DNA of 64,000 nt, from the IMG/VR virus record IMGVR_UViG_3300033067_002132, positions 32,001 through 96,000 of that record, one strand, 5' to 3'. Below are positions 38,313 to 57,563 of this stretch, piece by piece. Source of the stretch: a virus. Lineage: Duplodnaviria > Caudoviricetes. Position 1 is the first letter of the stretch. The number at the start of each line of letters is the position of its first letter. The translations under genes and the position numbers were made by a program. A model generated the notes under the pieces. That model worked only from the letters and a program-made list of their open reading frames with translations. It did not search any database and had not been told where the DNA came from.

Positions 38313-38436
38313 GTTAATGTAGAAAATTGGCAAATCAGGGGGTTTGTACCGAAAACAGAAATCACAGGGAAGACCGCCGATTAATGATATAGCTGTTAGA
38401 CATTAATTTATGTAGGTTCGACTCCTACCATTAACT
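38313..38436 (+). ncRNA. Class II tRNA-like RNA with inflated anticodon loop
   Basis: GTTAATG/CATTAAC acceptor, TGGCAAA D-loop, GTAGG-TTCGACT-CCTAC T-arm; no 7-nt anticodon loop and no CCA. Confidence 0.6.
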
Positions 38437-45122: not shown

Positions 45123-45216
45123 GGTCCCATAGTTTAATGGTAAAACGCACGGCTTATACCCGTGATAAGCTCTAGATTTGGGCACGTTCTAGGTTCGAAT
45201 CCTAGTGGGACTACCA
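45123..45216 (+). tRNA. tRNA-Ile(TAT) with long variable arm
   Basis: GGTCCCA/TGGGACT acceptor, CACGG-CTTATAC-CCGTG, ~24-nt variable region, CTAGG-TTCGAAT-CCTAG, CCA. Confidence 0.85.
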
Positions 45217-46397
45217 ATTTTCTAAATAATATGAATACCATTACCACAAAGGCCAATCCTGTTATTAAAACCCCTAGAATTGGAGATCTTTATTTAGATA
45301 GTAATGAAGAATTATATATTTTAGCTAGAGTAGATCTAAACGTTTATTCCGCGATTTCTTTGAAGGATGGGGAACCTTGGACTTCGGACCCAAGACCAAC
45401 AGTTCAAGAAGCAATTTATGGCTTGATTTTTTGTAAAAGGAACGCTAAGATCACTATTGAATGAACGCCACCGAAGCAAATAAGAATAGAAAGATCGGCG
45501 ATAAAATTACCTTTAATTTGGATCATAGCCCGCATGCAATGGGCGAGGGAATTATCGTAAGATTCGACGATGATTACTGTATCGTAAAAATTACTAAAGA
45601 TTGTCAAGAATATGGTCTAAAATTTGAATGCGGGCGCGATATCGTTGTCTTTTTCGACGAAATAACGAGTAAATAATTATGAAATACATTCTCACCCAAT
45701 TTTTTCCTGAATTATCTTTTATTGGTAATGCGAGGGACGCACAATTAATTTTGAATTCTGAAATTCTTAAATAATGAATAATTTCGACCAACTATTTTTA
45801 TTGTTTTTCATCGTAATGTTTGTCTTGATTATTCTAAAAGTTACTCAGAATTAAATTATGCACGCGCACGATCTAAATAAGCTAATAAATAAGGTAATTG
45901 CCGCGAAAAGTGGGGATTCTATTTATATCGGCGAGTGTATGTCAAGTGAAGAATTGGTGGATTTTTATCTTTATCTTTTGCGGCGCCTAATTTTTCCTGT
46001 TGTTAATTCATATAAAGAGGGCGAAAATCTTTATTATATTTTAACAGTGAAGAAAAAGTAGTGGACTATTGACAAACAGAAAAAGAGATTTAGACTGGAA
46101 AAACATGAAACGCGCATTTATCCATCTACCTAACGGTCAAACGTTTGAACTAAACAGAACGAGTAATGAAGAAATAACAGGCGTTGAAGTTGTCCAATTA
46201 CGAAGCTCTATGAAGGAAGCAGTTTCGTTTAGTTCCGAAGCTTTTACTGGGCCTAATTTCGATAAGAAAGTTATTTTGGTTCTGTGGGGCGAGGTACTCA
46301 AAAATTCTTTTATCACGATCGAGTAGAAACCTATTGACGAAAAGTAAAAAAGGATTTAGCCTTTTCAAGTCGAACGAAACATTAACTGAAAAATTCA

Positions 46398-46943
46398 ATG
46401 AATACCGATACCATTGCCCCTACGCCGACCGCCGAAATCGTCTCGCCCGAGACTCAGGAAGCCGTTAACGCTCTGCTTGCCAAGGTTGACGCTCCTCCCG
46501 TGCAAGACGCGGTTGAAGTCGCGCCGCCTGTTTCTGAAACGGTTTCCGCGCCCATTGCGGAAATCATCTCTGCCCCCGCCGAATCGGTTTCAGCGGAAGT
46601 TCCCGCTCCCGCGCCGATTGCTGAAACTACCCCCACCCCCGCTCAGGTTGCGGCGACCCCTCCCGCCGCAACCCCTGCCCCTGCCGCCCCTGTGATTGAG
46701 GCACGCAAGGTTTCCGTCGAAATTCTTTTCCCTAACAAGGAAGAGTTTACCAAGCGGGATATTGAAGTAATTAACGAGACGAATTACGTCGGCGCAAGTG
46801 AGCTGATTAATATGCTCGTTAGTACGGGTCAGGTTGAAAAGGTCCGCAAGCAGCCTCAGGCTGGACGTGGCAAGCCCACCGATATTTTCCGGTTGACGCC
46901 CAAGGCGCCGATTGCGAAAAACAAGAAGAATAACAAGAAGTAA
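46398..46943 (+). CDS. Pro/Ala/Thr-rich N-terminal region plus winged-helix-like C-terminal domain
   Basis: GRGKPTDIFR wing motif like 31501; own promoter and terminator. Confidence 0.55.
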   Translation: MNTDTIAPTPTAEIVSPETQEAVNALLAKVDAPPVQDAVEVAPPVSETVSAPIAEIISAPAESVSAEVPAPAPIAETTPTPAQVAATPPAATPAPAAPVIEARKVSVEILFPNKEEFTKRDIEVINETNYVGASELINMLVSTGQVEKVRKQPQAGRGKPTDIFRLTPKAPIAKNKKNNKK

Positions 46944-46960
46944 CTTCGTCGGTCCTTCAC

Positions 46961-46992
46961 AGGGGGAGGGGGTTTTACCCCCTCCCTTTTCT
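46961..46992 (+). terminator. Intrinsic terminator
   Basis: G-rich/C-rich hairpin followed by a T run. Confidence 0.7.
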
Positions 46993-47230
46993 TCTCTCTC
47001 TATGAATATAAATAGGGAAATCATACTAGCTTCGCCCATACTCAAAAAGCAATGGGAACAATCGATGCTATCTATGGAAGAATTTATTCTAAGAGCGGTG
47101 GATAATTTTGTGGTAAATTCGAAAGGGGGATCGAATGGTATTTCTTCTAATTTTGGCTCTAACGGTAGTGCTGGGTGTTCGTCTCTAAACTCTTGACATC
47201 GAATTCGGTTTTGAATAATCTATTGCCCGC

Positions 47231-47893
47231 ATGAGAGTTCTATTCACCCGCATTTCATCTAACAAAAAAACGGGTCCTATTCCCGTCTCTCTTACAACCG
47301 CAGACTCATGCCCCGACGTTTGTCCTTTGAAGAAAAAAGGTTGCTATGCATTTTTAGGGTATATAAGAATTCATTGGGATCGTGCCAATAAAACAGGTAT
47401 GAAATGGGGCGAATTTTGCGTAGAAATAGCTTTATTGCCTTCGGGACAATTGTGGCGCCACGATCAGGCGGGAGACCTGCCAGGAAAGAATAACAAAATT
47501 GACGCGCCCAAACTCGCTTTATTGGTTGAGGCTAATCTTGGCAAAAAAGGATTTACTTATACGCATAAGCCTTTAACAAAAGAAAATAGCGCCGCGATTA
47601 AGTATGCGAATTCTAATGGTTTCACGATCAATCTATCGGCCAATAATCTAAGGCACGCAGATGAATTAGCTAAAAAGAACGTTGGACCGGTTGTGACGTT
47701 GCTACCAAAGGATCAAATGAATAATTGCTTGACCCCCGAGGGGCGCAAAGTTATTGTCTGTCCCGCAGTCACGCGAGTAAATACAAATTGCATGACTTGC
47801 AAGCTGTGCGCAAATGCGAAAAGGTCAGTTATCATAGGTTTTCCTGCGCATGGCGTGGCCAAAAACATTGTGGACAAGATCGCGAAAGAATAA
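47231..47893 (+). CDS. Cys-rich Gp88/DUF7227-like phage protein
   Basis: S.NKKTG.IPV, SCP..CP....CYA, RH..AGD, CPA......C..CKLC, IGF.AHG. Confidence 0.65.
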   Translation: MRVLFTRISSNKKTGPIPVSLTTADSCPDVCPLKKKGCYAFLGYIRIHWDRANKTGMKWGEFCVEIALLPSGQLWRHDQAGDLPGKNNKIDAPKLALLVEANLGKKGFTYTHKPLTKENSAAIKYANSNGFTINLSANNLRHADELAKKNVGPVVTLLPKDQMNNCLTPEGRKVIVCPAVTRVNTNCMTCKLCANAKRSVIIGFPAHGVAKNIVDKIAKE

Positions 47894-48171
47894 GTATATG
47901 GAAAAGAAATCGACATCCCTAATTTCGCTTCGTTATCGTGGTTTTAAGGTTAAGTATCTATGTCCCGGAAACGTGCGGGGATCGCGAGTTAAGATTATCG
48001 ATTTGCGACATGACGAATCGGTTACGCTTTGTTTAGAGGATGAATATCGGGATTCTAGCGAGCAAGCTTACAACTGGTTAGAAGAACACGGCATTAAGAT
48101 TGTCGCTACTATGCTGGAACGAAATGAGGAAGTTTTCTTGACTGAGGATTTCAAAACCCATATTGTCTAGG

Positions 48172-48894
48172 TTAAAGGATTTTTGATCCTTTTTTCATGT
48201 TTTCTTCTTTCCATAAAGGTTGCAAGTTAGTATAATGAAAACATTTATGTAAATTTTCCTCTTTTGTAAGATCAAAAGAAACACAAGGAAGAATATGATC
48301 TATTTCCCATTTTCCATAATTATCCCAAGACATATTTTCTTTAAATTTCATTTCTAGATAAGACTTAAGATAATCAATAGAACAACCAAGATAAGCAATA
48401 GTTCTCTCTCTGTTGCAATTAAAGATATTTCTAATATATTTATTTAATCTGCGGCGTAAATTAGATTTAATTCTATATTGAATATTATTCTTTCTTCTGT
48501 TTCTATACATTTCTCTCACTTTTTCTTTATTTAATAATTTCCATCGTCTTGAAGCTTCCCTTTTTATCTTCATTTTTTCTGGATTAGCATGTCTAATTAT
48601 TTTATTTTTTAGAACTTCGCATTTCTTACAATAAGGACTAAAAATTCCCTTTTTCGATTTATTAAAAAAAGATAAATCAAATAAAGTCCCACAAAATTTA
48701 CAAATTTTTTCTGTTCGTTCTTTTTTCTTTTTAAATCTTTCTCTTTCTATATTATTCCTTCTTAAAATAGAATAAATAGTAGTTTTATTTACATTAAATA
48801 GTTTTTCTAATTCTTTTCCTTTTATATTGCTTATATAAGCTTCTATTATTTGTTTTTCTTTTTCTTCAGAAGTTTTATTATGCGTTTTTCTCAT
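48172..48894 (-). mobile_element. HNH/endoVII-like homing endonuclease with N-terminal HTH
   Basis: WEIDHILPC.SFDL.KEEN..KCFHYTNLQPLW..EN..KG; likely start 48894. Confidence 0.8.
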
Positions 48895-48970
48895 ATAAGA
48901 AATTACACAGAAAATTAGGGTTTCCATAATAATAGTTGACACAAATGGTTTTTTGTGAGAAACTCAAAGT

Positions 48971-49390
48971 GTGATTAAACATTTACTTTCTTTTTTATTG
49001 TGTTGTAATGTTTTTGCAGGTCAATATAATGAAAATGAAATAGTAGCAACCGTTTTAATTTTAGAAGCAGGCGGTGAAAAAGACGATAGATGTATGTCCG
49101 CCATTTACGAAGTAATTTGTAATAGGCAAATAAAAAGACATTTATCAAAAATAGAGGTTTGTTTACAAAAATATCAATTTTCTGAATTTAATGATGGAAA
49201 AATCAAAGAAAAAATAGCGAAAGCAAAAAAGCACCCAAAGTACAAGAAAGCCCTAAGTTTAATTAGTATGAAAACTGATTATACTCAGGGCGCGACGCAT
49301 TTCTACTCTACTAATATTGCCAAACCATACTGGGCAAAAAAGATGAAAGAAACGCTTGCTTTAGGAGCGTTTAAGTTCTATAAGGAATAA
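48971..49390 (+). CDS. Cell wall hydrolase (SleB/Hydrolase_2)
   Basis: EAGGE, VI.NR, QFS, GATHFY....PYW, FY. Confidence 0.85.
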   Translation: MIKHLLSFLLCCNVFAGQYNENEIVATVLILEAGGEKDDRCMSAIYEVICNRQIKRHLSKIEVCLQKYQFSEFNDGKIKEKIAKAKKHPKYKKALSLISMKTDYTQGATHFYSTNIAKPYWAKKMKETLALGAFKFYKE

Positions 49391-51140
49391 AATTTTATGC
49401 AAAACTTTCTAAATATCGCGAAAATAAATCGTAATAATTTTATTAAACGTTGCAGTAAATGCGACGAGGCAAAACTTGATTTATTCGAATATAAAGATAG
49501 TGTATTCGATGAAAAATTCACGCTAATTTGCTCGTGCTGTCATTACGTAATATTTAATCTCTCTGTTTTGGACTAAGAAAAACAGTTATTGACTTTCAAT
49601 CGGCGATTTAGTATTTTCTAACCATGAAACTTGACCAAGCTCTCGCCTATCTCAAAAGTTCCGGTTTCAAAATCACTCAGAAAGGCACAAAAACTTTTTT
49701 GGTTCAAAAGGGGAATGATCACCCTTGGCAAGCGGGAGAAGAGAAATTAATTAGAGTCGCGGAAAAGTACAAAAACATTCAAGAATAATTGACGCAAAAC
49801 GTTCACGTTTAAGTCTATGCAAATCACCCGCAGATCCCCCCTTACTGGCGAGAAGAATACTCGCGAAATTCCCGTGACTTTTCAAAACATAAAAGAATGG
49901 CAAAATGGTAAGTCAATTCAAGACGCTATGCCAAATCTTTCGGCGGAAGATCGAGAGTTTATTATGACTGGTTATACTCCCGAAGATTGGGCGAAAATGT
50001 TTCCGTCCGAACCTGAGAACTAAGTAAAAATTCTTATTGACGTTTAGCGCGGAATCGTTAGATTCAAGCCTATGAAATTAACTAAGTACCCTTTCAACGG
50101 AAGATGGCGCGTGGAAATGGTAGGAACGATTGACGAAATCGATTCTTATCTAATTCGCTTATACAATATTGGTGCGACAAATGCGACTTTTGAGCGCGAT
50201 CAATTGGAGACGTTTTTTCATATTGACTTGGAAAAGAAACGGTGGGAAAAGGCTTTGTCCGGCTGGTTGCAAATCCAAAATGCCGAAAACGAAACGCGCA
50301 AATTGTGCCGAATTGCACAGAAACAGCGCCGGGATAAAATTCCCATTTATTCGCAAGTAATGCAACGTTTGGCGCAAGAAGAAATCGCGGCAATTCCTAT
50401 TCCTGAAATCAAATCTGCTGTCCTGTCGCTTAAGAATCACGACTATAAGGGAATCTCTTATATCGTGGGGACCGATCATGAGGCGGAAATGATGAGTAAG
50501 GAAACGGAAATCCCTGCCAAAATTAACGTAAAGAAAATGACGGCGCGAAATTTTTCTTGCAACGCAACGGCAAGCGAGTAAGGATGAAGCCATGAACGGA
50601 CAAGAATTTTCCCAAAAGCAAACGGCAATCTTTAATAAGTATGAAATCACAGATCCGAGAATGGTCTCGATTATTTCATGCCAAGCTTGGGAGGATAATC
50701 ATTCGGACGGTTATGAAGCCGTCCTAGTAAAAACTGAAAAATATTGTCAGTTTACTGAAACGATCTTGAGTGCGTTTTTCGCTAGTATTAAATTGCGCTA
50801 AACAAGAATATAAGCCATGCCTCATTTGCCCATTTCTTTAGCTCTTTTGACAGATTTAGAAAGAGAAGAAAGCATAAGACGGGAAAGAACGGAAAAATAT
50901 ATCTTTGAAATAAAAGAAGCAAAGAAAGAATTCGAAAAAATGAATGAAATACATCACGGTTTTATTGGTTATTGGCCCGAAATGAACGAGCAAAAAAAGG
51001 CCAAACTATCCAGCCCTAAATGGGCCGATTTTCGGAAAAAGGGAAAAATCAAAGGGTGGCAGCGGAATAAACGTTGACGCGGAAATTAATTTAGGATAGG
51101 CTTTCGGTGTTGTGAGATTGGAGAGAGTTGAAACAACAAC

Positions 51141-51284
51141 GGCGGGGTAGTTTAATTGGTAAAATATTTTCCTTTTTTTGGTAGGCAATAGGGATCAATA
51201 TTGCCAATATCCGAAACGAAATCAAGACTGATCCTCTTGAATAAAATAAGGAAAAAGTTGCGGGTTCAAATCCCGCTCTCGTCT
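51141..51284 (+). ncRNA. tRNA scaffold whose anticodon loop is replaced by a two-hairpin kissing-loop insert
   Basis: Acceptor, D and T arms intact; TTTTCCTT/AAGGAAAA stem encloses ~75 nt. Confidence 0.7.
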
Positions 51285-52458
51285 GCTCCAATAATTAGCT
51301 AAAGTTAAATAAAGCTAAAAAAACAGAAAAACGAGGCGTCAAATTATACGCCTACACAACACAAAATGGAATATAAATATCTTCCCCATTACGACGATAA
51401 AACGTCAATAAGATTCGGCGAACTACCTTTGCCAAAGGAGATTTTTGCGCGGCAGGAATTAATGCGCGAAATTGGATTTACTGCGGGCGAGGAAGTTTGG
51501 AAGAAAGGGTATGGATACGTACCCATTTATTATTTCGTTCGCGAATTAACGAAAGACGAGCAAAATCTTTTGTGCCTTTGCCCCTTGACGGATGAGACGG
51601 CCGATGGTAAATTTCGTTCATGACGCCAATTACGCTGACCCCCGAGCAATTGCTTAACCTGCTTAAAGATTGCAAACGCGAAAGCGTTTTGTGCTGTAAT
51701 AGTTCGCTGCCAATTAAGCTTGTTTTGATCACTGAAATGCGTGAGGGACCGACAGGCTATTTGCCGCGCAGTATTTTCGGTGTTTATTACAAAAATCAAG
51801 TCGGGCGATTTTTTAATTCTTTGGAGGAAGCAATTGAATGCTATTGCCGAATTGAGAAAGCGAACGAAAGATTTCCTTGACGCTCAAAGACATTAGTTAA
51901 TACTCTCTCGCATGAACTCCACGATACTCAAAGTCTCTTATACTGGAACGCAGATTATCATCGCGAAAACGCTGGCCGCGATGCGAATTAAGAATCCCGC
52001 GCCGATTAAGTTCTATCCTACCAGAGCGGCGAGAGGAACTCATAACGTTGAGCGTATGTTCACGGTTTACCTTGAAGTTGAGACCACCACGGGGCGAATT
52101 CTGAGCGGCGGCGTGCAAGTTAACTAAATCTTTTATGGTAACAAAAACCTTTGCTTTCCTTCCTCTTAATAACAAGCAAGCAACGCCCGAATTTCGCTCT
52201 TTTATTTTGTCATTTATTGAAGGAATTAGAGTAGCGGAATCGGCACGCGGGCACGTTGTGCGAATTGAACCTACACTAAGCGGGGATTGTTCCGGTTGGT
52301 TGCTTGTATGCGAAGCGGAAATGGGAAAAGTTATTGGACAGTATTTGTCAAATCTCAATATTGAGCTTCGCGAGATTTGAAAACGCCCACTTGACAAAAA
52401 GCAAAGTCTCAGCTAACCTTTAGAAGTCGGTAGGAAAACAACGAAACGAAACAACACT

Positions 52459-52806
52459 ATGAAGAACGAAACCTTTGTGAACAGTCTCTTGAATGCGTCG
52501 GTCCCTACGGGCAAGATCGATTTGGCCGCGGTCCAGGCGGCGATTCAGGAAAAGAACGATGAGAACAACCGCGCCAAGATCGAACGCGCCCGCAATCTTT
52601 TCGAACGGTTGAATGGGGAAGTCACGTCCGCCGTGGAAAGCCTGCGAATCATTCGTCAGCAGGAAAAGGAAGCGAAGCAAACCGTGATTCGGCATGCTGC
52701 CGCTTTCGCCACGTTCAAGGAAACGGGCGATCTCAATAAGGTCGCGGCGATCCTGTACCCCGGCGAGAAGATCGCGCAGGAAAATTTCGTCCGCCGATAT
52801 TCCTGA
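52459..52806 (+). CDS. Hypothetical coiled-coil protein upstream of the pistol ribozyme
   Basis: ORF with own promoter TTGACA-N17-TAACCT at 52391. Confidence 0.7.
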   Translation: MKNETFVNSLLNASVPTGKIDLAAVQAAIQEKNDENNRAKIERARNLFERLNGEVTSAVESLRIIRQQEKEAKQTVIRHAAAFATFKETGDLNKVAAILYPGEKIAQENFVRRYS

Positions 52807-52817
52807 TCGCATAACAA

Positions 52818-52887
52818 ACTCGACTAGGCGAGTATAAATAGATAATTAAGCCTAGTGCGTTTGCGGGTAAAACCCCGCAAGGTTTAT
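52818..52887 (+). ncRNA. Pistol self-cleaving ribozyme
   Basis: ACTCG-ACTAGG-CGAGT-ATAAA-TAG-ATAA-TTAA-GCCTAGT-GCG-P3 hairpin-GT-TTAT; matches the pistol layout element by element. Confidence 0.88.
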
Positions 52888-53020
52888 GATATTAATTATA
52901 TATTATCTCCGAATTGCAAGTGCCTTGCGCCGCGCAATTTATCCCTGAAACAACAGGGGTTAAAAGCTTCAAGCTAAAGGAAAAAAAAGCCTTCGTGCTG
53001 TCGGTGTTTGTTTCCTTCGT

Positions 53021-53061
53021 TGAGTGGGGCGGGGAGAGAAATCTTCCCGCCTCATTTGTTT
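53021..53061 (+). terminator. Intrinsic terminator
   Basis: TGGGGCGGGGAGA-GAAA-TCTTCCCGCCTCA hairpin followed by a T-rich tail. Confidence 0.7.
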
Positions 53062-53097
53062 ATTGACATGCGCGGTGCATTTAGCTAATTTGATCGC

Positions 53098-53607
53098 ATG
53101 CAAGACCTGACCGCTTCTCTCGCCGATAGTCTTTCACGCAAACACTATCGCAAGACGCCTGCCATGTTTTCCGTCATGACTCTGCGCGATAAACTTCCTT
53201 TCGATTCTAAGCCTCTCGCCGATGATCCTAATAAAATTGCCGATTATTGTCGCCAAGCAATTATTGGCAAAAAAGGGTACAATCCCGACGTGGAAAGTTG
53301 TTGGGTTATCGTAATGAATACGCGCCGACGAATTGAAGGGCATTTTCTAGTAGCAACAGGAACTCTCGACACTTTGTTAGTTCATGCTCGCGAAGTGTTT
53401 CGCGGCGCTATTCTTGCCAATGCTGCGGCGATTGTTCTTATGCATAATCACCCAAGCGGCGACCCGACTCCGAGCGAAGCTGATATCCGCGTGACCCGAG
53501 AAATGATTAGAGCGGGCCAACTACTAAAAATCGAAGTATTAGATCACGTAATTTTAGGAGAACCTAAGCATTGCTCGCTTAAGGAATTAGGGTATTTTAC
53601 TTATTAG
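53098..53607 (+). CDS. radC: RadC/JAB-domain protein
   Basis: HAREVFR.AI, HNHPSGDPTPS.AD, LDHVI. Confidence 0.92.
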   Translation: MQDLTASLADSLSRKHYRKTPAMFSVMTLRDKLPFDSKPLADDPNKIADYCRQAIIGKKGYNPDVESCWVIVMNTRRRIEGHFLVATGTLDTLLVHAREVFRGAILANAAAIVLMHNHPSGDPTPSEADIRVTREMIRAGQLLKIEVLDHVILGEPKHCSLKELGYFTY

Positions 53608-54078
53608 GCAAAATTTGCCTATTGACTTTTCATTTTCGTTCTGATAGCTTTAAATTATGCAAATCGACAAGCAACTACTCATCGCCCGCAACACGCTTCT
53701 CAACCTGAACGAAGAGTTGGCTGGATATCGCATTTACTTCATGGGTGATAAATTCCGCGAGGATACCACGGTACAAGTTCATGAAATTCTTTCGCGAATT
53801 CTGATCCTTAAAGACCAAGTGGAAACCGCATTGGAAAGTGTCACAATGCCTTTCAAGGTTCAAGTGGCGGCGGGCGAATTGAATCCTGGCGATAAAGCTT
53901 TTTTGATCGAAACGAATCCCGAAATGGGAATGGAAGAAACCCTCGACTGGACCTGTACATATATCGGCCAAGAAAAGGTTCTTTTCGAATACGTAAAACA
54001 AGGAAAACAAACGAGAACCACAATGCGGAATAAAACTGAGATTGTTTGGAAACTGCGCTAAATTAAATTCGATTGAAA

Positions 54079-54294
54079 AATCCCCGATTCTAGAATTTAT
54101 TGCTAAATAAAAAGCCTACTCAAATTCCCTGGTTCTAGAAAGTCGCGCTAAATAAAAGTACGTAGCGCGGACCCTGGCCGATTGGGCGCATAGCGGGCCG
54201 AACTAGCCGGGGCAATTAGAGTAGAAACCCTTAAGAATTAAAACTATGGTAAAAACCCTTAAGAACAGGCGTTATGGTAAAAACAACTAAGATC
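54079..54294. repeat. Two sets of imperfect direct repeats
   Basis: 2x AAAT.CC..TTCTAGAA...GCTAAATAAAA; 3x GTA(A/G)AAAC..TAAGA. Confidence 0.55.
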
Positions 54295-54367
54295 AGCACC
54301 TAGAAGAAAAGAGCTAAGGAAAAGAACTATTGCAACGCCAATGGCTTTCTGCCAAGCTTTCGCTCCT

Positions 54368-54916
54368 ATGAATCCTATTGAAACCCTAAAGACATTCGCG
54401 CACAATCCTCCCGGATTTGCCAGTTTTACCTATACGGCAAAAGGTAGCGGGGAAACTGCGCGGCATACCGTCATCCTCGGATTTGACTACAACAAGAGTG
54501 TGGAAAAGAGCCTAACCGATTTGGCGTGCATTAATCGGGCGGATTTCCCCGCAATTTCGGATGAATTGTGGCCCGTTGCCGTTTCGGAAATTCGGGCCAG
54601 TCTCGAAAAGACGCTGGCCGCGCACGTAAGGGGCGAGCAAAACGCGGACTACACAAAAAAGGATCAGTATTTGTCCCTGGGGTTTTCTGGTATGCACGTT
54701 AACCTTAATGACGGAAGCCTACAAGTTTTCGGGCTGGCGCACGCTAAGACTGTCCTGGTGCCCGGCGAATATAAGCCCGTCAAATCCCGTCCCCTCACGC
54801 TGGCCAAGGAAGCCATCCGCAAGACGCTGGCCGTGGGAAAATTCCGCGAGTTTGCCTTTGACTCCGGGACGATACACACTGTCCGCATGAACGGTTCGAC
54901 CCTCGAAATCGAGTAG
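54368..54916 (+). CDS. Conserved hypothetical phage protein
   Basis: Long ORF behind a TTGCAA promoter; YK.VKS..LT.AK..IRK.L...KFR.F. Confidence 0.65.
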   Translation: MNPIETLKTFAHNPPGFASFTYTAKGSGETARHTVILGFDYNKSVEKSLTDLACINRADFPAISDELWPVAVSEIRASLEKTLAAHVRGEQNADYTKKDQYLSLGFSGMHVNLNDGSLQVFGLAHAKTVLVPGEYKPVKSRPLTLAKEAIRKTLAVGKFREFAFDSGTIHTVRMNGSTLEIE

Positions 54917-55347
54917 GGGGAAAGACTATGCTCTTTCTCCTAATCGTTATCATTATCATCCTTTGTGCCGCTTACCATGAATAGAATAAAAAACGCTATC
55001 CTAATTCTTTTTTGGGTAGGCGTAGGATTCGGCGTTATTTTCGTAGTTTTTACCTTTATTTCGAACCTTTATTCTTCCTAGTTATGAAGCTAACCTTTTG
55101 CCTTGTATGGGGTCGCAATCGCCAGTTTCGCCTAAGCGAGCAAGGCTTAGCTGTGCTGCGCGTCCTTCGTCCCTTTGGCCCCTTGCCGTTCCTGCGGTGG
55201 GATTCCGTTGTGCGATTCGATCCTGGCCTTGCGTTGCTTGCGTTGCTCTTTTCGCTCCTTTTCGCATTTACCTATTGACGGCAAAAACCGTGTCTGATAC
55301 CGTTTCCTTGTCGGTCGCAGAAACAACCAAAACAAATTAGATAGAAC

Positions 55348-56166
55348 ATGAAAGCCAAACTTTACTTGCACGCTGGCGGAGCCCTTACAACGTGGGACGC
55401 GCTTAATGCTCTGCCCACCCCGCCCGCGATTGGCAAACACGTCCCTGTTGGACACGCGGCCTTTTTGGACCGCATCGAAAGACTGTTGCCCGTGGACGGA
55501 TTCAGTGTGATCGAACGCCAGATTGCCGTCGCAAAGGACGGGGCGCGGATGTTTGCGCTCCTTCAACTAGCCCACCCTAGCCTAACGTGTGGCGATGGGT
55601 CAGGGTATATCATGGGTGTGCGAAACTCTCACGACAAGGCGTTTGCCGCTTCTGTTACCGTGGGCCGTTGCCCCTTCGTTTGCGATAATCTCGCGTTTTC
55701 GTCCGGGGCGGATGGTGTTGTCGTTAATCGGCGCCATATTGGGGGCGTGCATCGTGACTTGGGCGGAATGGTTATGGAGTTAATCGCGGGGCTCGCCGAT
55801 CGATTCCGGATTACGGATGCTCGGGACGCTTGTTATCGGGGCGCTACGCTTGACAATCGGGACGCTGATCACTTCGTTTTAGAGTTGTACCGCAACGGGG
55901 CGATTGGTTGGGGCGAAGCACGCCGTGTTCTCGCGGAGTACCACGGGACGGCCGTTAACCCCGACAAGGTTGAATTCCGTCATGCGGAATTCGAACCCCG
56001 GACCGCCTATTCTCTTTTCAACGCTTTTACGCAAGAATTGAAGGGAATTGACGACAAGGGTGTGGCCCACCCTAACGTTTGGGAACTCCCGAAGGCGACC
56101 GCAATCGCGTGCGAAGTGTTCGACCGCCTTTGCACCTTCAACCCCGCCGGGGCGATTGTCGTCTAG
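55348..56166 (+). CDS. DUF932-family protein
   Basis: G.RNSHDK, FVCDNLAF, RH, T.YSLFNAFT..LK. Confidence 0.8.
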   Translation: MKAKLYLHAGGALTTWDALNALPTPPAIGKHVPVGHAAFLDRIERLLPVDGFSVIERQIAVAKDGARMFALLQLAHPSLTCGDGSGYIMGVRNSHDKAFAASVTVGRCPFVCDNLAFSSGADGVVVNRRHIGGVHRDLGGMVMELIAGLADRFRITDARDACYRGATLDNRDADHFVLELYRNGAIGWGEARRVLAEYHGTAVNPDKVEFRHAEFEPRTAYSLFNAFTQELKGIDDKGVAHPNVWELPKATAIACEVFDRLCTFNPAGAIVV

Positions 56167-56176
56167 TGTGACTCAC

Positions 56177-56207
56177 GGGGAAGGGGGCTTTCCCCCTTCC
56201 CCCCTCT
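56177..56207 (+). terminator. GC-rich hairpin, possible terminator
   Basis: GGGGAAGGGGG/CCCCCTTCCCC hairpin with a weak tail. Confidence 0.5.
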
Positions 56208-56573
56208 CCTCAATTCCAATCTCTACCAACACTAAAAACCATGAATTCCACCATCGCGAAAAATCTCGAAAACTGGCGTGAGTCCCGCGGGCTTAACATT
56301 CGCCGAAACGAAGTCAACCGAATCCTCGCTCAACGGGTCGCAAACGAAGCGGCAGAGAACGCCCGGCGAGCCGAGGAAGCCTTGCAAGCGGGGCTTGCGT
56401 CAGATCGGATCGAACGTGCCAAACGTATGGGGGCTACCCCGCCCGCTTCTGCTATCGACGTAAAGTTTCGGCGCGGGTCGGATGGAAGGGGCGGGCGTAC
56501 TTTCTGGGAATGGATTTTCCCCAAGCAAATCGAGACTGTCGCGGCCTATTAAGTAAAAGCGCGTAGGCTATCG

Positions 56574-56603
56574 CCCCCTAGGTCACAAGCCTAGGGGGTT
56601 TTT
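56574..56603 (+). terminator. Intrinsic terminator ending the GC-richer block
   Basis: CCCCTAGG/CCTAGGGG followed by a T run. Confidence 0.8.
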
Positions 56604-57563
56604 CTTATACCCCGCCAACGCTCTAGGATCGACGGAGAAGCGTTTTGATTGCGCGACGATACCAACAGAACGCCAACAATTAATGATAACGCCAGACAAA
56701 CCGCTGTAGCTACCCTATAGGCACGGTCGATAGCGCCGAAAGCCAACTAACTGTTAAAGGAAGCTAGGCAAAAAGTGCCGTTTTGAACTAAATGGGCGCG
56801 AATAAGAAAGATCACTAAGAAATTATGCCCCCCAATTTCTTAATTAATTTTAGTAGTGAAATTTCGTAGATGCCCCCGGGGAGGTCGAATTAACTCGCTC
56901 ATTATCATTTAAACCTTTTATTATATATTCTTTCTTTCCCCACATATATATAAATCATTAATAACGTATTATAATTTAATCTTTTATTGTATATATTACT
57001 CTCTATATCTTTATCTATTATTCCTCTTCTAAAAAGAAGTCGAAGTTATAGTTTTTTGTAAAAATGGCGGGGGTCATATTTATTCTATAGCTTTATTATA
57101 GATATAGGGGGGGTATTTCTTATTCTATATAGATTTAAAAATATTAATAAATATTAGTTTTTATAAAAATGGCCCGAAGTATATTTTTTATAGACCTTTG
57201 TTATAGATACTCTTTTTTTATTCTGTGTAATAATGTTTAGATTTCCGCCCGAATATATTTAATATAAAACAATGAATACAGAAGAAAATGATGTTTTATG
57301 GAATCTTGCTAAGGAAAGTTTAGATGTACTTAAAGAACAAGATAAAAATGCGGCGCCATTAATTATAGTTGGATTTAATAATCAAACTACTCAGGTTTAT
57401 TCTTATACTCTTCCTTATCCCGGATTAACTTTATTAGATTATTCATTAATTCTTGGTTCTATTGCTAAGGATCATTTAAATACTTTTAATTATGATTCTA
57501 AAAAATTAGAACAAATAAAATTAGAAATCGCCCAAGGATTTATAGAAGGATTAAATTCAAAAA

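Follow-up and report, generated by a model that had tools for sequence, protein, structure and literature searches.

As far as is known, bacteria and their viruses remove introns from their tRNAs by group I self-splicing only. For small inserts in the tRNA genes of phages we know of just one report, on the Lak phages, which left them without an explanation. The tRNA genes of these megaphages contain small “enigmatic” introns whose mechanism was not explained, and the insert in the example shown possibly encodes a tRNA of its own (Devoto et al. 2019, PMC6784885). Other RNAs that resemble the locus described here in one respect or another are the group I introns, such as those of tRNA-Leu(UAA) and the Azoarcus tRNA-Ile, the YrlA Y RNAs and tmRNA, and the type III hammerhead ribozyme.

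We analysed a window of 64,000 nucleotides, bases 32001-96000 of the virus record IMGVR_UViG_3300033067_002132, which has 193,745 bases, is rated complete and has a G+C content of 29.4%. The virus is a tailed phage of a bacterium, and its AT-rich genome is of ~194 kb. We place the host among the bacteria because the phage has a tmRNA (full-length, genome 16147-16554, locus L058, 94.5 bits), because its terminase is nearest to those of Bacillus phages, and because the genes around the locus are of bacterial type. Besides the tmRNA there are about 27 tRNA genes, and in most of these the CCA is encoded. Two tRNA-Ile(UAU) genes, a tRNA-Gln(UUG) and a tRNA-Asn(GUU) are 91-94 nt long, with a variable arm of roughly 20 nt (window 45123-45216; genome 3050-3140, 10954-11047 and 17155-17247); among bacterial tRNAs, an arm of this kind is usually confined to those for Leu, Ser and Tyr.

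The interrupted gene lies in an island at ~46-57 kb of the window (46000-57000), where the G+C content is 40-58% in a genome of 29%. The island holds many small genes on the same strand, among them those for a cell-wall hydrolase, RadC, DUF932 and DUF7227, and has the appearance of an accessory or counter-defence region that was acquired. Searches of the neighbouring genes against Pfam and PHROGs named no RNA enzyme.

The Rfam tRNA model (RF00005) matched 51141-51284 on the plus strand with 47.2 bits, against a gathering score of 29, skipping ~75 nt of the anticodon loop. The initial annotation had reported an intact acceptor stem, D arm and T arm here, and all three are present in the sequence and covered by a match above the gathering score. 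It had also read the anticodon as replaced by an RNA module, which does not hold: the triplet UUU (51175-51177) follows directly 3' of U33. Of the gene finders it had proposed as a check, tRNAscan-SE or ARAGORN, ARAGORN missed the gene at default settings and, with introns allowed, called a tRNA-Lys(UUU) with a 70-nt insert at 51178-51247, the intron being placed at sequence position 38. The gene and the ribozyme downstream are laid out as follows.

51141-51177, plus strand: 5' exon of the tRNA-Lys (acceptor 5' strand, D arm, anticodon-stem 5' strand, U32, U33 and anticodon UUU)
51178-51247, plus strand: insert of 70 nt, the candidate intron, directly after the anticodon (ARAGORN)
51248-51284, plus strand: 3' exon (A37, A38, anticodon-stem 3' strand, 4-nt variable loop, T arm, acceptor 3' strand and discriminator U)
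52818-52887, plus strand: pistol ribozyme (68.6 bits, gathering score 34.5), 1.5 kb downstream of the tRNA and within the island

The exact position of the predicted splice points is ambiguous by 1-2 nt owing to runs of U and A. The acceptor stem has 7 bp, three of them G-U, and the 3' exon encodes no CCA, unlike most tRNAs of the same phage. BLAST searches of the exons against phages returned only generic matches to the D and T arms, from tRNA-Gly and others, and were uninformative about identity.

We tried a range of methods to find relatives. Neither the phage collection nor the plasmid collection contained a close DNA relative, and pattern scans of viral contigs, for DNA patterns and for the terminase, and of metagenome and genome contigs gave only chance matches or unrelated tRNAs. 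The proteins encoded on either side were used instead: the 85-aa protein downstream led to one contig (L005), and cluster members of the 74-aa protein upstream led to five more (L043-L047). These six short metagenome contigs, from at least five samples, are the sole relatives found. They have the same gene order and carry a tRNA-Lys(CUU) with a 51-nt insert at the same position (ARAGORN, introns allowed); the tRNA of L005 was called by ARAGORN and falls below the Rfam gathering score. A profile search gave 30 relatives of the downstream protein, and none of the six loci examined carries a tRNA, so that the protein has no fixed association with the RNA. When the phage genome and every retrieved locus were searched with a covariance model of the insert, no second copy turned up (best remaining hit 20 bits, E 0.06), and a regular-expression search likewise found none.

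In the relatives the tRNA abuts the upstream gene and overlaps its stop codon by two bases. As the tRNA starts inside that stop codon, it has no promoter of its own in these contigs. The promoter that had been proposed for the window gene is weak, with a -10 hexamer that matches at three of six positions and lies below our scan threshold, and it is not conserved in the relatives.

The anticodon stem and the two hairpins reported earlier are all there, the stem as 8 bp and both hairpins in the minimum-energy fold. The layout was incomplete, however, as a third helix, 51176-51181 with 51211-51216, had been overlooked. With this helix the insert is a three-way junction rather than two free hairpins, composed of the following parts.

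51167-51174 with 51248-51255, plus strand: P0, 8 bp, the anticodon stem plus the 32:38 and 33:37 pairs
51175, plus strand: wobble base 34, the sole unpaired nucleotide between P0 and Pa (U in the window, C in the relatives)
51176-51181 with 51211-51216, plus strand: Pa, anticodon bases 35-36 and the first four insert bases, in minimum-energy folds
51184-51205, plus strand: hairpin 1, 7 bp with an 8-nt loop, within the loop of Pa, in the window only
51217-51221, plus strand: junction strand J2, CGAAA, invariant in the window, L005, L043 and L047
51222-51240, plus strand: Pb (hairpin 2), 6 bp with a 7-nt loop
51241-51247, plus strand: junction strand J3, AUAAAAU, invariant in all sequences

The order of the junction is the same in both lineages: P0 (8 bp), one free base, Pa (6-7 bp), the 5-nt strand, Pb, the 7-nt strand and back to P0. 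Read from the sequence, J3 can alternatively pair with the U run that holds anticodon bases 35-36. The 5' and 3' ends of the insert are not paired with each other, and the insert has no T-loop-like loop and no CCA.

To see how selection has acted we compared four distinct sequences from two diverged lineages. At the synonymous sites of the downstream gene the two lineages are 72% identical, a divergence large enough to be informative. Every one of the 154 pair cells holds a standard pair. Six pairs have changed on both sides, against 1.5 expected, a number reached in none of 500 shuffles. Four of them are in Pb (four of its six pairs), the T stem contributes one, and the sixth, at the top of the extended anticodon stem, is the 32:38 pair, which is U-A in one lineage and C-G in the other; all eight P0 pairs are standard in each of the four sequences. 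The six pairs of Pa are also kept throughout, with changes on one side only. In the tRNA body the elbow tertiary pair has gone from G19-C56 to A19-U56, while U8-A14, A15-U48, G18-U55 and U54-A58 are kept, as read from the alignment. Outside the 12 invariant junction nucleotides, identity within the insert is about 42%, compared with the 72% at the synonymous sites mentioned above.

In an alignment such as this, stems that covary, loops that vary and a core that stays fixed are the signature of an RNA selected for its fold, and from the substitution pattern the gene has clearly remained functional since it acquired the insert. The earlier description of a tRNA-shaped RNA with a structured insert is borne out as that of something real and selected. 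The two-sided change at the predicted 32:38 pair shows that pairing is selected at a place where decoding tRNAs usually have none. The lysine anticodon is found in both lineages, as UUU in the window and CUU in the relatives.

The initial annotation had made a kissing-loop module the central feature of the RNA. The complement between the loops does exist: 51192-51197 and 51229-51234 match perfectly over 6 nt, with a duplex energy of -7.7 kcal/mol and a chance probability of about 0.002-0.007. It is absent from the sole relatives, however, where the position of hairpin 1 is a gap. Covariation of the loop pairs in homologues, which had been put forward as a check, was not found, as the two loops of the relatives share just two complementary bases. 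Aligned with the reverse complement of Pb, hairpin 1 matches at 14 of 17 positions; the alignment has a single gap, and in one stem pair both bases differ. Hairpin 1 probably arose as an inverted copy of Pb, and inverted copying by itself would make the two loops complementary. The predicted kissing loop is thus a lineage-specific feature of the window and not part of the element's core. It may stabilise parallel packing of Pa and Pb.

How does this insert compare with the systems outlined above? Like the Lak introns it is a short insert in the anticodon loop of a phage tRNA, far smaller than group I, with no Rfam class and no known means of removal. It is short, lacks a group I core and restores a tRNA when removed, which are the marks of the “enigmatic” phage introns, a class that is descriptive only. 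Unlike the Lak example it is not tRNA-shaped, and the anticodon itself contributes to its three-way junction. In sequence it bears no similarity to the Lak inserts, and a different phage and host are expected.

The likeness to group I introns lies in the site, the anticodon loop, and in a P1-like hairpin formed by the last exon and first intron bases. Base U36 pairs with G in L005 and L047, partly like group I, and with A in the window and L043-L046. The insert is 51-70 nt as against ~200 nt or more, however, has no P3-P9 core, and ends in U with no terminal G. Apart from tRNA, no Rfam family, Intron_gpI, YrlA and hammerhead included, matched 51141-51284 at E values up to 10, and no Intron_gpI match reached the gathering score elsewhere in the phage. 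On size, the missing core, the missing terminal G and the absence of an Rfam match we rejected a group I intron, in agreement with the earlier view that the insert is too short for one.

With the YrlA Y RNAs and tmRNA the locus has in common a selected, L-shaped tRNA body carrying a non-decoding structure in place of the anticodon loop. In contrast to them the window RNA ends at the acceptor stem and not in an extended arm, its D arm is complete, and a lysine anticodon is present. The Ro-binding helix is absent, and TROVE (PF05731) was not found in the whole phage genome although the controls matched. With no TROVE protein and no YrlA match, a Y RNA was also rejected.

The hammerhead (type III) is likewise a ~50-nt three-way junction, has an unpaired pyrimidine after a U-A closing pair, and has side-hairpin loops that can touch. 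The junction strands of the insert, in contrast, are of 1, 5 and 7 nt (CGAAA and AUAAAAU for the longer two), in the wrong order and of the wrong sequence, and Rfam gives no hammerhead match.

The window holds a second odd tRNA-like gene, at 38313-38436 on the plus strand (Rfam tRNA, 29.4 bits), with perfect acceptor and T arms and a weak D stem. Here ~70 nt replace the anticodon arm and form an extra arm and a 7-bp hairpin with a 14-nt loop. It has a short motif in common with the insert, but it is arranged differently and is not matched by the insert model.

Our preferred reading, to which we give a probability of about 0.45, is that a small intron of the type called “enigmatic” in phages interrupts the tRNA-Lys(UUU) directly after the anticodon and is removed in trans, and that the gene provides the phage's sole decoder of AAA. 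In the precursor the anticodon stem would be extended by the 32:38 and 33:37 pairs into P0, the wobble base would lie free at the three-way junction with anticodon bases 35-36 locked in Pa, and Pb would branch off between the invariant CGAAA and AUAAAAU single strands. The insert would be cut out after base 36 and before base 37, and the halves, held together by P0, would be rejoined by enzymes acting in trans, a putative endonuclease and a host ligase such as RtcB. The conserved junction would then be a recognition or catalytic element for removal.

Codon usage fits such a role. The phage uses AAA at ~74 per 1000, among the two most frequent codons counted, and AAG at 7.7 per 1000, and there is no other tRNA-Lys(UUU) in the phage, although its ~27 tRNAs cover most A-ending codons. 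In both lineages, a 7-nt loop with U33 and A37 is regained when a single contiguous stretch is taken out. As the lysine triplet is kept, a 7-nt loop can be restored and no other tRNA-Lys(UUU) is present, we regard an intron as at least as likely as a non-decoding RNA. The agreement on lysine comes from two lineages only and could arise by chance roughly one time in three.

The enzymes would have to be supplied in trans, as the phage encodes none. Searches of the phage for RtcB, an Rnl2-type ligase and a CCA enzyme found none, nor was there an EndA-type splicing endonuclease (tRNA_int_endo, PF01974), for which archaeal controls matched; an Rnl1 search is uninformative, as its control too matched nothing in any genome. 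We know of no splicing route for such an insert in bacteria. Two bacterial routes were considered and rejected: an RNase III-type cut calls for an offset of 2 nt, and that between the two splice points is 3 nt or 1 nt, and for excision by RNase P and RNase Z the insert lacks an acceptor-like stem.

The product would be an unusual decoder. Without the insert the gene departs from the full set of canonical dimensions, a 7-bp acceptor stem, a 5-bp anticodon stem and a 7-nt loop with bases 32 and 38 unpaired. The spliced form would have an anticodon stem of 6 bp, or else 2 nt at position 26, and that of the relatives would combine a Watson-Crick C32-G38 pair with an acceptor stem of 8 bp. As discriminator the gene has U or C, varying between the two among near-identical copies, whereas in bacterial tRNA-Lys it is usually A.

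These departures would fit an RNA that is never spliced, and the main alternative, which we consider somewhat less likely, is a tRNA-shaped non-coding RNA whose ends are processed like those of a tRNA and whose anticodon arm is a rod, with P0 stacked on Pa, bearing a side hairpin. One may speculate that it acts, for example, as a decoy or sponge for a nuclease directed at tRNA-Lys or for another tRNA-binding defence or host factor. The structure of the insert is under selection, with covariation in Pb and invariant junction strands, and the change from U-A to C-G at 32:38 is unusual for a decoding loop. The 6-bp anticodon stem, the relatives' 8-bp acceptor stem and the variable discriminator point the same way. 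So do the position of the gene amid small accessory genes with RadC, DUF932 and DUF7227, as on mobile elements, and the relatives' overlap with the upstream stop codon and lack of a promoter of their own. Against this, the gene retains a spliceable arrangement of lysine anticodon, U33 and A37, and the phage would otherwise be without the tRNA-Lys(UUU) that its codon usage demands. Rfam gives tRNA only, the kissing loop is not conserved, and we know of no partner and of no such tRNA-like class. The natural, tRNA-scaffolded RNA that does not decode, as first proposed for this locus, therefore gains from the unusual mature form and loses from the retained lysine triplet, an intron being at least as likely.

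A dead tRNA gene, hit by a DNA insertion and now either drifting or kept as a signal for RNase P and RNase Z to cut a polycistronic transcript, would explain why default ARAGORN missed the gene, why the L005 relative is under the Rfam gathering score, and why the tRNA is absent from other loci with relatives of the downstream gene. We think this improbable. All helices are still fully paired since the lineages split, with six pairs and the elbow pair changed on both sides, and a cutting signal alone would not require the conserved core of the insert. A gene that has been kept working since the insert arrived is hard to reconcile with decay.

Slightly less probable still is that the insert is a new small ribozyme, whose junction cleaves itself and possibly rejoins the exons with no protein endonuclease. 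In size and layout it resembles the small self-cleaving ribozymes, with three helices, variable loops, covarying stems and invariant strands of 5 and 7 nt, and the strand at the 5' splice point is contested by two pairings, Pa and the invariant 3' strand. The pistol ribozyme 1.5 kb downstream means that ribozymes do occur in this island. However, no Rfam ribozyme matches even at E values up to 10, the order and sequences of the junction are unlike the hammerhead core, and we know of no natural small ribozyme that makes both cuts and the joint. We give an equally low chance to the 51-70-nt junction representing a novel class of small catalytic RNA, able to excise itself from the anticodon loop unaided or with just a general host ligase.

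An archaeal or eukaryal intron cut at a bulge-helix-bulge by the splicing endonuclease is very unlikely, for although the insert lies at the canonical position (between bases 36 and 38) or adjoins it, a 3-nt bulge, 4-bp helix and 3-nt bulge cannot be drawn in either lineage, the splice region being a near-continuous helix with one pyrimidine mismatch or a three-way junction, and the phage has no tRNA_int_endo match and an apparently bacterial host.

Other unusual tRNA-like sequences came to light among the fetched contigs. A contig of a Cyanothece sp. metagenome-assembled genome (L038, 4100-4700, minus strand) carries three tandem tRNA-like genes with inserts of ~50 nt and a common stretch of ~22 nt. 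ARAGORN calls two of them, with introns of 48 nt and 52 nt, and a tmRNA-like T-arm fragment adjoins. These genes may be another kind of interrupted bacterial tRNA. In two GC-rich viral contigs (L003, 8880-8945, and L004, 3380-3445) a T arm and an acceptor-like 3' end lie just after a gene. The T arm and its flanking bases are identical to those of the window tRNA-Lys, and no full tRNA is evident.

Returning to the interrupted tRNA-Lys, the comparison goes beyond recording its presence, as the tRNA body and the insert have both remained under selection since the insert was acquired. It also defines the core of the insert as three helices and 12 invariant junction bases, with the anticodon itself part of a helix. 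tRNA-Lys(UUU) is a classic target of anticodon nucleases, and an interrupted phage copy of this tRNA may bear on the conflict between phage and host. At ~145 nt the gene offers a compact substrate with which to distinguish protein-based tRNA splicing in bacteria, a new small ribozyme and a tRNA-shaped RNA that does not decode. If the junction does remove itself, no smaller self-excising intron would be known, and bacteria or their viruses would have a means of splicing that has not previously been described for them.
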